From positions 64,001-128,000 of the forward strand of contig OZ220716.1 of the NCBI GenBank assembly GCA_965116795.1: a stretch of 64,000 nucleotides of DNA, in the 5' to 3' direction. The position numbers and the translations under genes are program-made. The notes below the pieces were generated by a model. That model saw nothing but the letters and a program-made list of their open reading frames with translations, had not been told where the DNA came from and did not search any database. The DNA is from Gammaproteobacteria bacterium. Its GTDB lineage: Bacteria; Pseudomonadota; Gammaproteobacteria; JAJFKG01. Shown piece after piece: positions 8,281 to 12,146 of the stretch (the stretch's first letter is position 1; every line of letters starts with the position of its first letter).

Positions 8281-9285
8281 ATGATATTCAAGGACAAAAT
8301 ACCCTGCTGTTATTTCCCAGCCAAAGTTATCATCATTGACGATAATAAAAATTTTTGTAGTAACTTATCATTGGCGTTTGGATCAGATTTCCATTGCCAC
8401 TGCTTTGCATCACCCCAAGAAGCACTAACTTATTTACAAGAATATAATGCATCATCTAAGTCATTATTTACTAAACACATACTTGCACCATCCGATCAAA
8501 CCACCCCAACCATGCTATCTGTTAATATTGATATCGCTGCCATGTGTAAAGAAATTTACAGCCAAAACAACCGTTTTGATCGTCCAAATATATTAATCGT
8601 TGATTACTCAATGCCAGAAATGAATGGATTGGAATTTTGTGAGCAGTTAGTCGACCTGCCTTACCAAAAGATCATTTTAACTGGAGAAGCAACTAACAAC
8701 TTTGCTGTTGATGCATTTAATCGAGGGAAAATAGAGCGCTTTGTTAAAAAAGGAGAAAGCAACTATCTGGAAAAACTAAAGAAATATATTAAAGAGTTAA
8801 ACATCAGTTACTTTAATCAATTGTCGCAAAGTGTATTTGATATGTTAAATACTAGTGGACAAAACTTACTACGTAATAGCAAGTTTATTGAAATCTTTAA
8901 TCGTATTATTTCAGAAAATAACATCATTGAATTTTACTTAACTGATGATACCGGCAGTTACTTATTGCAAGATGAAGAAGGTAATCATATTGAGTTAATT
9001 GTCAGAACCGATGAAGATATGCAATCTTTTGCTGAATTAGCCGAAGACGATGGTAAAAATGCAATAGCAACAGTCATTGCTCAACGAAAAAAAATGCCAC
9101 GTATGTTAGTATGGCAAGATCGGATTTCTCCAGTAGAAGATTGGGCACTATACGATATGAATCTACTTCATGTTGGTGACAATACTTATTACTACGCCAT
9201 AATTAATGATAATGCTTCAGTAAGTAATTTAACCCAACAAAAACCTATTTCTTATCACCAATATTTGGTAGAAAACGCACATTAG
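8281..9285 (+). CDS. lqsR: LqsR-like response regulator
   Basis: IPCCYFP..IIIDD, IVDYSMPEMNGLEFC, KIILTGEA, AFNRGKIERF, IIEFYLTDDTGS, ISYHQYL closely follow Legionella LqsR as recalled. Confidence 0.85.
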   Translation: MIFKDKIPCCYFPAKVIIIDDNKNFCSNLSLAFGSDFHCHCFASPQEALTYLQEYNASSKSLFTKHILAPSDQTTPTMLSVNIDIAAMCKEIYSQNNRFDRPNILIVDYSMPEMNGLEFCEQLVDLPYQKIILTGEATNNFAVDAFNRGKIERFVKKGESNYLEKLKKYIKELNISYFNQLSQSVFDMLNTSGQNLLRNSKFIEIFNRIISENNIIEFYLTDDTGSYLLQDEEGNHIELIVRTDEDMQSFAELAEDDGKNAIATVIAQRKKMPRMLVWQDRISPVEDWALYDMNLLHVGDNTYYYAIINDNASVSNLTQQKPISYHQYLVENAH

Positions 9286-9340
9286 TATTAAACATTAACA
9301 ATGTTTAATAACATTACACACAGTACGTAGTCGAGTAACA

Positions 9341-10387
9341 TTGATGAAAGCAAAAATTCGGTATATACAAGATTTAATTATTGCAACTCTCTTTGGTATG
9401 TTAATTGCCTGGATAATTTTTAATGAGTCTAACTCATTTAACACAATACTTGGTATCCATCCTAACTTTCTTGGCTTGATTGATATGTTAAATACCCTAG
9501 CCACTAGCATTATCATTTATATCGTTTTGTCCAGGCGAAAAGAACGTCGTCAAGAAGCCGAACTGGCTGCTGAAAAAGCACGCACTGAAAGCATGCGCTT
9601 AATAGGTGCCAGTATTGCACATGAATTACGTACCCCACTACATGCAGTGAAGTTATTTGCACAGGGTGTTAAAAACTACTTACCTCCACTAATTGAAACA
9701 TATAATATAGCAAAGCAACATAAATTAGATATTCCAATTATTCGTCCACAACATTTAACCATGTTAAATGACAATATCGATAGTATCGATTTACAAGTTG
9801 ATCATTCAACTTTGATAATCGATATGTTGTTAACTAATATCTCGTTTAAAACAATTTGTCAGACTGAGTTCAACAAATATTCGATTAGTGATTGCATTGA
9901 TAAAACATTAGAATCTTATCCTTTTTCTGAAAAAGACAAACAATTAGTTAGCTGGGATCGTAGTCAACATATTGATTTTATATTCTTAGGATCAGACCAT
10001 TTAATTATTCAAGTACTATTTAATCTTATTAAAAATGCTCTTTATTTTATTAATTCTAAAAGACGTGGCATTATTACTATCTGGCTAGAACACAGTAAAA
10101 AATGTAATAAATTACATGTGAAAGATACTGCACAAGGGATTGATCCGGATACACTGCCATACATTTTCGAAAAGTTTTTTACAAAAGATACTGCTCATGG
10201 TACTGGGATCGGTTTAGCATTTTGTAAGATGTGTATGCAAGCACATGACGGTGACATTACTTGTGAATCTGATTATGGGAAATATACACAATTTACGTTA
10301 ACGCTTCCATTAGTTGATTCTGTTGCGATTCAAGGTAATAATACTACTGAGCAATATACAGCCTCATTAAAGTTTGCAGAACTATAG
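9341..10387 (+). CDS. LqsS/LqsT-like sensor histidine kinase with only two TM helices
   Basis: H-box SIAHELRTPL, N-box LFNLIKNALY, KDTAQGI, GTGIGLAFCK; LqsS-like insert YLPPLIETYNIAKQH..IR; ~65-aa N-terminal membrane part. Confidence 0.85.
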   Translation: MMKAKIRYIQDLIIATLFGMLIAWIIFNESNSFNTILGIHPNFLGLIDMLNTLATSIIIYIVLSRRKERRQEAELAAEKARTESMRLIGASIAHELRTPLHAVKLFAQGVKNYLPPLIETYNIAKQHKLDIPIIRPQHLTMLNDNIDSIDLQVDHSTLIIDMLLTNISFKTICQTEFNKYSISDCIDKTLESYPFSEKDKQLVSWDRSQHIDFIFLGSDHLIIQVLFNLIKNALYFINSKRRGIITIWLEHSKKCNKLHVKDTAQGIDPDTLPYIFEKFFTKDTAHGTGIGLAFCKMCMQAHDGDITCESDYGKYTQFTLTLPLVDSVAIQGNNTTEQYTASLKFAEL

Positions 10388-10447
10388 AAAAAATAATTAC
10401 TAATATGATAACCAGCTACCTTTGCACATATTTTAGGAGAAATTCAC

Positions 10448-11185
10448 ATGCGGAAAGTACTATATAAGATATTTAACAATGCTGAGTTGATTCTGGCGTT
10501 TGTTGCTATTTTCTCACTAAGCTTCAATGTATACTTGTTTATGAAACAAAATAAGCAAACTGAAGAGACAGCATTGGCAGTTGAAGAAAAGTATTATCAG
10601 CTGAGTAAGGCAATGCAAGATTTTTCTATAAAAAAATCGATGTCAGCAAATCTACATGGCGATATTATTGACTTAAAATTCCTTAACTATGAACTGTTTT
10701 CTCTCTGCGCTGACAAAAAACGCTACTCACCTAGTGAGTTTAAAAGTAATTTGCGTAGAATTAACACACAACGTTTCCGTGCTATTAGAGAACTTGTTAA
10801 AAGTAGTCAAGGCAAGAGCATTTTTGTTCCGTTATTTAAAGAAAAAACGTATGCTGATATTCAGTGTAGGACTAAATGGAACATAGCACTTTATGAAAAA
10901 GTACACAGCACCGACCAGTGTCAAATTATACAAGTCAGTGATATCTCTTTTTGTAAAGAAAATAAAACAAAGTATGCAGACTTTTGTATGATTAAAGATA
11001 AACAAAAACTAACACTACAGAACTTCGATAAGTTATTCGACCAATGGCATCAATGTCAATCATTTGAGTTAAATCAACAAGTAAAACAAGCTGAAATTAA
11101 GATAGACCAACTTCTTTCAGAAGACACGACTACAAATAACGGCAAAATATCTATTAAATTATTACCAGGAATGAATACATTTTAA
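10448..11185 (+). CDS. Hypothetical single-pass membrane-anchored protein with six Cys
   Basis: RBS AGGAG; N-terminal hydrophobic helix LILAFVAIFSLSFNVYLF; 245 aa. Confidence 0.75.
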   Translation: MRKVLYKIFNNAELILAFVAIFSLSFNVYLFMKQNKQTEETALAVEEKYYQLSKAMQDFSIKKSMSANLHGDIIDLKFLNYELFSLCADKKRYSPSEFKSNLRRINTQRFRAIRELVKSSQGKSIFVPLFKEKTYADIQCRTKWNIALYEKVHSTDQCQIIQVSDISFCKENKTKYADFCMIKDKQKLTLQNFDKLFDQWHQCQSFELNQQVKQAEIKIDQLLSEDTTTNNGKISIKLLPGMNTF

Positions 11186-11247
11186 TGACCATGGCACAAT
11201 GCAACAGATGCTCTTTTTTTGCGAAGCCATTTTTTTAGGATCTTCAT
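11182..11247 (-). CDS. Uncalled 21-aa peptide MKILKKWLRKKRASVALCHGH
   Basis: AAGGAG RBS at 11257-11262, 9 nt before ATG; directly downstream of and co-oriented with the GRDP-like gene. Confidence 0.6.
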   Translation of the reverse strand: MKILKKWLRKKRASVALCHGH

Positions 11248-11303
11248 TGTTTAATACTCCTTAATTCGTCAAGCCAAATACTATGGTATAGTTAATATAT
11301 TTT

Positions 11304-11807
11304 TTAATATGTATCATCTGCAAAAGCAGAAAATTTATTTGCAATAAAATTACGTAACTTATCTAGCATTCTTTCAAAAAAGCCTTTGCCATGTACTTTA
11401 TAAATATAATTACCAAATTCTTTCTTATATAGAAATTGCGTCTCTTCAAATGCTGCTTTTAATGTTGATAAAGATTCGGCTGTTGCCAAATGTGGGTCAT
11501 GATCAAGGTAGCTATCTTCAAGCTCAGGAAAGATTAATTTACAAAACTTTCGATATTGTTTTGTTTGCAGTATATGTGCATGCCATACTTCATCAATATC
11601 TTTTGATGGCGGCAATTTTTTAGTTGGATACAATTTACAAAGATAAAGGTAATTACGATACTGTGCGATTGCTGCAGTCGCTTCTCTAGGCTTCCAACCT
11701 TCGGTCAAGACTAACCGTTCAAAGGTTGAATTTAAGTCATATGTATGAATCTTTTTACATACATCGCGAAGTTTAGCAGATACAGGTAATTCTTGGTCAA
11801 TAACCAT
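11304..11807 (-). CDS. Glycine-rich-domain (GRDP/DUF1399-like) protein
   Basis: AIAQYRNYLYL...PPSKDIDEVWHAHILQTKQYRKFC...YLDHDP signature; likely ATG at 11807 with GGGG RBS (track starts at 11912). Confidence 0.75.
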   Translation of the reverse strand: MVIDQELPVSAKLRDVCKKIHTYDLNSTFERLVLTEGWKPREATAAIAQYRNYLYLCKLYPTKKLPPSKDIDEVWHAHILQTKQYRKFCKLIFPELEDSYLDHDPHLATAESLSTLKAAFEETQFLYKKEFGNYIYKVHGKGFFERMLDKLRNFIANKFSAFADDTY

Positions 11808-12146
11808 ATCACCCCGTAAAGCAGCAGACACATTACTCCCCTCTAGAATTACGATCTTTAATAAATCGACACAGGCTCTCAAAACGATTTTATTAATCTC
11901 TAAATTCTGCAATTATTAATATTATGGGCGTATATTAAATTAACCAAAAAAAAAGTCAAATGGTCTAGGTAACTAATTCATGATGCCTATAATTAAATCA
12001 TGGAAGTAATTTGATAATTGTTGGTAAGCAATCAACATAAATACAGCTTCTTAGCAAAAAGTAATCAGCTCAATTTAGCGATACCTAGCAAGAACAGCTA
12101 CGACTTCTCGCGTTAATCAATTGACAAGTTCAATCAGCACCCTACA

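Follow-up and report, generated by a model that had tools for sequence, protein, structure and literature searches.

A recurrent three-gene module beside a truncated LqsS-type kinase: a candidate modified-peptide signal in a gammaproteobacterium

What might an LqsS-type kinase respond to when most of its sensor is missing and its genome appears to hold no lqsA, and what are the genes beside it for? These questions are raised by a short islet in a Gammaproteobacteria bacterium, within the 64,000-nucleotide stretch analyzed here (the window; G000:C1:64001-128000) of a genome, G000, that consists of a single 2.45-Mb contig and is 97.7% complete. The islet encodes an LqsR-family response regulator, an LqsS-type histidine kinase with two transmembrane (TM) helices and a 245-residue single-TM anchored protein, all co-directional (regulator stop to kinase, 58 nt; kinase to anchored-protein gene, 60 nt), facing a 21-residue peptide and a GRDP-like protein on the opposite strand. 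The initial annotation had proposed that these five open reading frames (ORFs) form one system in which the Lqs phosphorelay is rewired to a peptide signal. All five ORFs lie where it placed them and are as it described, and the islet is AT-rich as stated (32.3% GC against about 42% on either side; 0.323 across 8201-12000, flanks 0.424 and 0.418). As a recurrent system, however, the five genes did not hold up, since they occur together in no other genome searched. Sequence comparison reduces the conserved unit from five genes to three: the GRDP-like gene, a peptide with the ending A-x-x-A-x-C-x, and a convergent gene for a single-TM protein.

An AAGGAG ribosome site precedes the peptide ORF, which shares an overlap of stop codons with the 245-residue gene. 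From related loci (46 genome and 80 metagenome loci sampled with the GRDP alignment, and 30 more added by whole-genome search), we collected 60 distinct peptides of common layout: they begin with a cationic amphipathic part, continue with a Lys/Arg patch, and close with A-x-x-A-x-C plus one to four residues. A-x-C belonged to the collection filter, and the first Ala, which did not, is present in 49 of the 60. The N-terminal helix is strongly cationic and amphipathic (hydrophobic moment 0.64), and each peptide has a single Cys whose neighboring residues are highly variable. The small ORF, presumably translated, is thus to be counted by alignment as a member of a conserved peptide family that travels with the GRDP-like gene; of the CHGH ending that had first drawn attention to it, the A-x-C-x part is conserved, while the His residues are found in this copy alone. 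A short precursor gene with a conserved leader and core (a split drawn from the alignment) beside a candidate maturase is the arrangement of a peptide that is made by ribosomes and then modified post-translationally (RiPP). A lipoprotein precursor was rejected because of the Lys/Arg-rich stretch at -8 to -6 and the variable, often large residue at -1 across the 60 peptides; the lipobox consensus has a hydrophobic h-region and a small residue ahead of the Cys.

Within G000, about ten family peptides are found, all at the four GRDP regions (genome-wide motif scan, 31 matches to motif plus ribosome site), and the remaining GRDP genes of the genome are also adjoined by similar small ORFs. With duplicates removed, 43 close GRDP relatives score 140 bits or higher and have 400 nt or more of downstream sequence; 21 of them have a peptide ORF within 600 nt downstream, against a genome-wide background of about 0.012 per 500 nt, and the small ORF is therefore present beyond chance; the corresponding counts are 3/18 for middle and 2/53 for distant relatives. 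An array at G000:C1:320264-320673 (locus L024), 3.7 kb from a GRDP gene, comprises five more peptides of the family, all of them preceded by strong ribosome sites. It lies at the edge of an element whose genes include integrase-like and recombination-like ones, as named by sequence reading.

The third member is the constant convergent partner of the peptide. At 30 of 38 anchored-family genes with sufficient flanking sequence a convergent peptide lies within 700 nt, the other three orientations giving 0, 0 and 1 of 38, although these 38 rows contain fragments and near-duplicates and the peptide motif was drawn from the same loci, which tells against taking the count at face value. The independent test is provided by held-out anchored genes, all three of which face a convergent peptide (two genomes outside both the profile and the motif set). 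Among 400 class-wide genomes, one of them unscored, the anchored family was detected in six, all six among the 27 with a GRDP gene and four of the six outside the profile. At 19 further GRDP loci of this sample, neither the strict peptide motif nor an anchored gene was found within 1.5 kb (0/19), and the trio is therefore confined to one branch. For some peptide-anchored pairs the 1.5-kb surroundings contain no GRDP gene, but the genome has one elsewhere. G000 itself has four modules; G001, of the same genus, has one elsewhere in its genome and no LqsR match. The module is mobile and, from its occurrences, spread across Legionella/Coxiella-like bacteria. A literature search at listing level, supplements not covered, found no description of it. 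The fourth G000 module (L026, G000:C1:2408843-2410456) is rearranged, its peptide converging on the anchored gene and reading away from the GRDP gene; PLP-decarboxylase-like and FabH-like genes lie nearby.

The anchored protein of the islet has one N-terminal hydrophobic segment and one close homolog in the database. Its six Cys, emphasized in the initial annotation, are present, but just two of them are invariant in the family, which comprises single-TM proteins at the same locus position that align through these two residues (median identity 14% in a set of 22). A profile built from 15 foreign members of the family places the four proteins next to GRDP genes in G000 at ranks 1-4 of 4382 ORFs, the 245-residue protein at E 0.0017. 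No Pfam family matches it at E<=0.1, and its ESM Atlas matches are only unnamed clusters below 0.8. Its model (predicted local distance difference test, pLDDT, 88.9) has a long first helix continuous with the TM segment and then a four-helix bundle, after which the chain ends, with no second TM helix and no cytoplasmic output domain. Among natural proteins, its fold is best matched by the periplasmic domains with which chemoreceptors and kinases bind ligands; Z is 11.0 for 8bsa (root-mean-square deviation 3.6, 147 aligned), 10.6 for the QseE complex 9m08, 10.5 for Tsr, 10.4 for Tar and 10.1 for PcaY. From the model we predict an extracytoplasmic four-helix bundle whose fold may be sensor-like. 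Between two related G000 elements, nonsynonymous divergence (dN) is 0.46 for the anchored gene, 0.09 for the GRDP gene and 0.045 for the other flank, and such fast divergence is as expected of a specificity determinant. The two elements (L024 and L025; G000:C1:312-329 kb and 131-146 kb) are integrative, each bears a module, and they diverge strongly only in the anchored four-helix gene and the peptide core; each also carries a Cys-rich anchored protein of 362/365 residues and a small two-TM protein without Pfam matches. Just upstream of the anchored gene there is often a member of a 124-134-residue family (L030:7549-7947, L046:7703-8107, L054:8232-8636, L039:6454-6828, L239:2854-3255), with no Pfam matches in the four of five scanned.

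The longest extent of the GRDP-like ORF is 11304-11912 (-); the gene likely starts at the GTG at 11831, which carries the ribosome site GAGGGGAG and agrees with a 175-residue database call (P0001). The protein matches PF07173 at 25.8 bits (cut-off 22.7), PF27765 is recorded for P0001, and ESM Atlas clusters reach 0.92. The GRDP/DUF1399 domain has 14,778 representatives at E<=0.001, from bacteria to plants, and our literature search found no chemistry for the family. A D-x-x-W-H-x-H motif is present, and D80, W83, H84, H86, Y93, C97 and H111 are conserved across 319 aligned rows, with the reservation that for D80, W83, H84 and H86 this is partly circular, the locus-derived rows having been fetched with that pattern. 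The model is all-helical (pLDDT 83), with no Foldseek match at E<=0.001 and a best Z of 4.0 among solved folds, a result that proves neither a new fold nor a mechanism. Distant GRDP proteins bear a Cys in their own tail in 49 of 58 cases, against 31 of 151 in the close group, and within the last five residues in 32 of 58 against 7 of 151; some of the distant ones have Cys-rich tails or repeated Cys cores, while the close ones mostly do not and have a separate peptide instead. Other Cys-bearing small ORFs, read by eye, lie beside 10 of the 19 further GRDP loci. Because of this fused-or-separate Cys pattern and the His/Asp cluster, we regard the GRDP-like protein as a probable metal-dependent Cys maturase. 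The tails of distant members and the Cys-bearing small ORFs may likewise be taken as support for the module as a peptide-signal unit.

The single Cys, as a likely modification site, would also suit a metal-binding or host-directed product, e.g., a Cys-derived chelator like the MNIO-modified bufferins, which the anchored protein would capture or display. Consistent with this, the Cys/Gly-rich tails of distant GRDP fusions resemble tails discussed as MNIO substrates (PMC12452194), and the lineage is related to protist-associated bacteria. However, one Cys with highly variable neighbors fits diversified recognition better than a fixed metal site, and neither an MNIO gene nor a metal transporter turned up among the conserved neighbors of the module; we consider such a product improbable.

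GRDP genes have further noteworthy surroundings. In L098, L105, L106, L128 and L140 the GRDP tails contain tandem Cys-bearing cores resembling multi-core self-modifying precursors, and in L129, L139 and L112 distant GRDP proteins are fused to apparent ubiquitin-/SUMO-like domains with a Gly-Cys end instead of Gly-Gly. A contig-edge ORF (L075:7637-8473, -) matches GRDP and, weakly, the anchored profile, faces a family peptide and is possibly a fusion. Recurrent neighbors are S-adenosylmethionine (SAM) methyltransferases, some TPMT-like (L028, L029, L030, L033, L075), luciferase-like monooxygenases (L036, L044, L045) and GNAT acetyltransferases (L036, L052, L054), all possible tailoring enzymes. 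Other GRDP sub-branches of the same class (L269-L273, L276, L266, L268, L284, L275) have different Cys peptides, either three-Cys cores upstream or longer single-Cys peptides, with no anchored-family gene within 1.5 kb. In plasmid (20 records) and phage (1 record) collections only distant GRDP homologs were found; the plasmid ones are mostly annotated as hypothetical and come from Pseudomonas savastanoi/amygdali, Rhizobium and Piscirickettsia (NZ_CP078141.1, NC_019292.2, NZ_CP033939.1 and others).

As a plausible mechanism, the GRDP-like protein would modify the near-terminal Cys of the peptide, a step that we consider fairly probable; the modified peptide would then be exported and, outside the inner membrane, bind to the anchored protein, an interaction that we regard as likely. 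With one TM helix and no output domain, such a receptor must signal via a partner. That the three genes as a whole constitute a modified-peptide signal with a stand-alone anchored receptor seems to us a question of even chances, and several observations weigh against it. The fold ranking of the anchored protein is topped by a designed bundle, Z values below about 13 in helical bundles may mean a common arrangement, and a Foldseek search with the model returned no match at E<=0.001 (all E>0.1). A close GRDP gene in G338 is adjoined by neither peptide nor anchored gene, and the modules showed neither a conserved exporter nor a conserved protease. Peptide core and anchored protein co-vary weakly (partial r 0.15, p 0.04, with related loci and one mis-assigned core in the set). 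A signaling gene of some sort is found close to 10 of 28 modules, compared with 7% of equal windows in G000, which favors the signaling reading; against it, the other 18 have none, the background comes from one signaling-poor genome, and some of the loci are related. Finally, up to five different cationic amphipathic peptides face one anchored gene, which equally suits a toxin arsenal.

This last point leads to the main rival of the signaling reading, a toxin-immunity pair, in which membrane-active bacteriocin-like or phenol-soluble-modulin (PSM)-like peptides, perhaps matured by the GRDP-like protein, would attack other cells and the anchored protein would protect the producer by periplasmic binding, with the Lqs pair sensing attack or being a passenger. 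The strongly cationic amphipathic helix, the multi-peptide arrays, the carriage on integrative elements and the fast divergence of the anchored gene would all be explained by it, and pore-forming colicins have convergent immunity genes. Nonetheless, the natural proteins that best match the anchored partner are sensor domains, signaling genes are moderately enriched nearby, and the fixed A-x-x-A-x-C-x end is echoed in Cys tails and peptides at distant GRDP loci without the cationic helix, suggesting that the helix is a leader rather than the active part. We therefore hold killing to be unlikely and take signaling as the presumed function of the module.

How the Lqs pair relates to this module depends on what is left of it. 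The regulator is complete, with residues 6-331 matching PDB 6sy9 at E 9e-58 (an entry titled only 'Response regulator', which we take to be LqsR), and is 61% identical to a second copy in G000. The kinase, in line with the two TM helices and the lack of upstream room originally noted, has hydrophobic segments at residues ~8-30 and 43-64 and starts 58 nt after the regulator stop (an alternative TTG start lies at 9341). In the alignment with six-TM relatives, these helices correspond to the final two of the sensor region. The catalytic boxes are intact (HELRTP H-box, N/G1/F/G2), and in a tree of the best 45 of 120 listed homologs the kinase forms a clade with the full-length LqsS of G000 and one other six-TM kinase (support 99/94), which identifies it as LqsS-type. 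Its helices are only 31-33% identical to those of six-TM kin that share 50-69% among themselves, while the cytoplasmic part is 55-64% identical to the two closest kin; against the full-length LqsS of G000, synonymous divergence (dS) is 3.4 and dN is 0.33. On these comparisons we take the gene for a six-TM LqsS that was truncated long ago and has been kept under selection. Recent breakage was rejected in view of the intact boxes, a dN far below dS and the strongly diverged helices. Other short kinase homologs, P0206 and P0268, retain more of the sensor and may be partial. The missing helices matter because PMC3376566 places the ligand determinants of CqsS/LqsS in TM1-4 and TM6, and alpha-hydroxyketone sensing by the islet kinase is on this ground unlikely.

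Nor was a synthase found, either in the islet or elsewhere in the genome, as the initial annotation had supposed. Three PF00155 proteins were matched in the 97.7% complete contig, none of them LqsA; the best NF005526 score is 148 bits (cut-off 428), from a protein that passes the BioF cut-off and lies in a bio operon. In G000 a full-length kinase precedes the second lqsR (2145719-2148196 on C1), without lqsA; an aminotransferase beside that pair was examined as LqsA and discarded, as it scores as aspartate-aminotransferase type. The absence of lqsA had been read as a special sign, a reading that does not survive comparison: the LqsA/CqsA model exceeds its cut-off in 0/15 other LqsR-bearing genomes, several of them drafts, and such absence is in print for Legionella (PMC8023197) and Ralstonia (PMC10653808), the former giving receptor-only lqs sets in 20 of 58 species.

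In the islet, the two-TM kinase, devoid of the alpha-hydroxyketone-sensing helices, could act as an intramembrane relay from the anchored receptor to LqsR. We regard this local coupling in G000 as doubtful, and the rewiring of Lqs to a peptide signal as a single-genome inference. Linkage was counted in 25 genomes picked for GRDP or LqsR matches or as nearest kin. The neighborhood association of lqsR with GRDP-like genes that had been anticipated is seen in part: among 13 genomes with both genes, three (G000, G043 and G055) have LqsR at most about 4 kb away from a GRDP gene, but an LqsS-type kinase adjoins one in only 1 of 9 genomes with both, namely G000, and the five-gene set in no other. An LqsR match is, moreover, absent from 8 of 21 GRDP-bearing genomes, which again speaks against coupling. 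Besides its four GRDP-like genes, G000 has two LqsS-type kinases and three LqsR-like genes, the third of which is a more distant orphan (C1 452154-453071); the three other modules have no Lqs genes.

The Lqs pair could thus be an independent passenger, a duplicate of lqsR/lqsS that met a GRDP module at a rearrangement junction, its two-TM kinase sensing a membrane property or some other partner. Besides the single adjacency and the Lqs-free modules, this is supported by the abundance of paralogs (up to 8 LqsR and 9 LqsS per genome, the kinase core occurring with different input modules), by the shuffled appearance of anchored and GRDP genes relative to each other (r -0.09), and by the position of the islet where the nuoN-tRNA-Met order (of G001) and the yajR-uvrA order (of G002) break. 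On the other hand, the genes are co-directional with gaps of 58-60 nt, a sensor-less kinase stands directly ahead of a kinase-less sensor, and LqsR occurs near modules in two further genomes, G043 and G055. We rate the passenger explanation at somewhat less than an even chance, and about as likely as coupling.

The wider claim, that the module belongs to a new class of signal, a modified peptide passed between cells of Gram-negative bacteria, with A-x-C-x peptides matured by the GRDP-like enzyme and read by the stand-alone anchored bundle, and that in G000 this receptor has captured the Lqs phosphorelay by taking the place of the alpha-hydroxyketone sensor of LqsS, is tentative, and we think it rather unlikely. 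Peptide pheromones are usually regarded as a Gram-positive trait; if the signaling reading is true, a diversified, mobile peptide-receptor module would extend them to Legionella/Coxiella-like Gram-negatives, and the islet would contain a natural split receptor, with a sensor-only chain and a kinase-only chain. It would also be one concrete candidate for the input of LqsS/LqsR pairs that lack lqsA. In any case, the GRDP/DUF1399 domain gains a minimal test case, a 175-residue protein with a peptide of about 20 residues and 60 natural substrate variants.

The features of the islet and its flanks are collected in Table 1. In G001, nuoN lies upstream of tRNA-Met and the islet is absent there; the yajR-ssb pair occurs without the islet in both G001 and G002. 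The islet edges (window 7822-8281 and 11912-12147) mark a rearrangement junction: nuoN, which in G002 likewise lies upstream of tRNA-Met after a few genes, is at 1.85 Mb in G000, and uvrA, which adjoins yajR in G002, is at 22-25 kb. Integration at the tRNA 3' end was dismissed, the islet being on the 5' side of tRNA-Met, and a promoter scan remained at chance level (23 vs 22.1).

Table 1. Islet genes and flanking genes (positions in the window)
Feature	Position	Strand	Details
LqsR-family response regulator	8281..9285	+	334 aa, phospho-acceptor Asp108; PF00072; PDB 6sy9 match
LqsS-type histidine kinase, last two TM helices only	9344..10387	+	347 aa from ATG, His93; PF00512/PF02518
Single-TM anchored protein, candidate peptide receptor	10448..11185	+	245 aa; leave-out profile, alignment, model, fold searches
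21-aa peptide gene, candidate precursor	11182..11247	-	MKILKKWLRKKRASVALCHGH; ribosome site, 60-peptide family, paralogs in genome
GRDP-like / UCP032817-like protein, candidate Cys-modifying enzyme	11304..11831	-	175 aa; PF07173, PF27765
tRNA-Met(CAT), head of rimP-nusA-infB operon	7746..7822	-	left flank, outside system
YajR-type MFS (major facilitator superfamily) transporter, precedes ssb	12147..13535	+	right flank, core gene

Compared with known systems, the islet is closest in its parts to Legionella Lqs (lqsA-lqsR-hdeD-lqsS with the orphan lqsT; signal LAI-1), with which it shares a full-length LqsR-family regulator, an LqsS-type core and the order lqsR before lqsS. Of the hallmarks of Lqs/Cqs, it has the regulator but neither the pyridoxal phosphate (PLP)-dependent synthase nor the six-TM sensor: no lqsA was found in the genome, the kinase has no TM1-4, and it is followed by an anchored four-helix-bundle gene facing a peptide-GRDP unit. 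Receptor-only Legionella lqs sets (PMC8023197) keep ordinary receptors, unlike the islet. For the departure of an LqsR-family regulator from lqsA/lqsS to another signaling cluster there is a precedent in PhcX of Ralstonia solanacearum, described in PMC10653808 as an LqsR ortholog that was decoupled from Lqs and joined the Phc cluster; in contrast to that small-molecule system, the islet keeps a truncated kinase and its neighbor is a peptide module. Two-TM kinases that depend on partner proteins are likewise known, e.g., BceS-BceAB and WalK-WalHI (PMC8534201). The islet kinase resembles these intramembrane-sensing kinases in having two TM helices with a very short outside loop and a neighboring membrane protein as candidate sensor, but it is a truncated LqsS, and its partner is a stand-alone four-helix bundle rather than a transporter.

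The anchored protein, in turn, may be like the sensor bundles of Tar/Tsr, Vc1313, PcaY, QseE, NarQ and TorS in its predicted fold and in the TM helix running into the first helix, and differs from Tar/Tsr-type sensors in having no second TM helix or output domain, in its two invariant Cys and in an identity of 6-13%. With the GRDP/DUF1399 (PF07173) and UCP032817-like (PF27765) proteins, including Arabidopsis AtGRDP1/2, the GRDP-like protein shares the domain and the D-x-x-W-H-x-H motif; unlike AtGRDP1/2-type proteins, it is stand-alone, tail-less and paired with a separate peptide. The proposed logic of the module recalls agrBDCA and comQXPA, in which a short precursor whose N-terminus is amphipathic is likewise combined with a gene dedicated to its processing, a hypervariable recognition part and a two-component read-out. 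Identity with agr/comQXPA was rejected, as the AgrB, ComQ and AgrC/ComP families are not among the matches listed in Pfam/NCBIfam scans of the five proteins (for the kinase, the best 25 of 79 NCBIfam matches). The host here is Gram-negative, the role of receptor would fall to a single-TM protein distinct from the kinase, and the peptide Cys is one to four residues away from the end. By analogy, the module, while sharing none of their tested defining parts, would work like the modified-peptide pheromones of Gram-positive bacteria.

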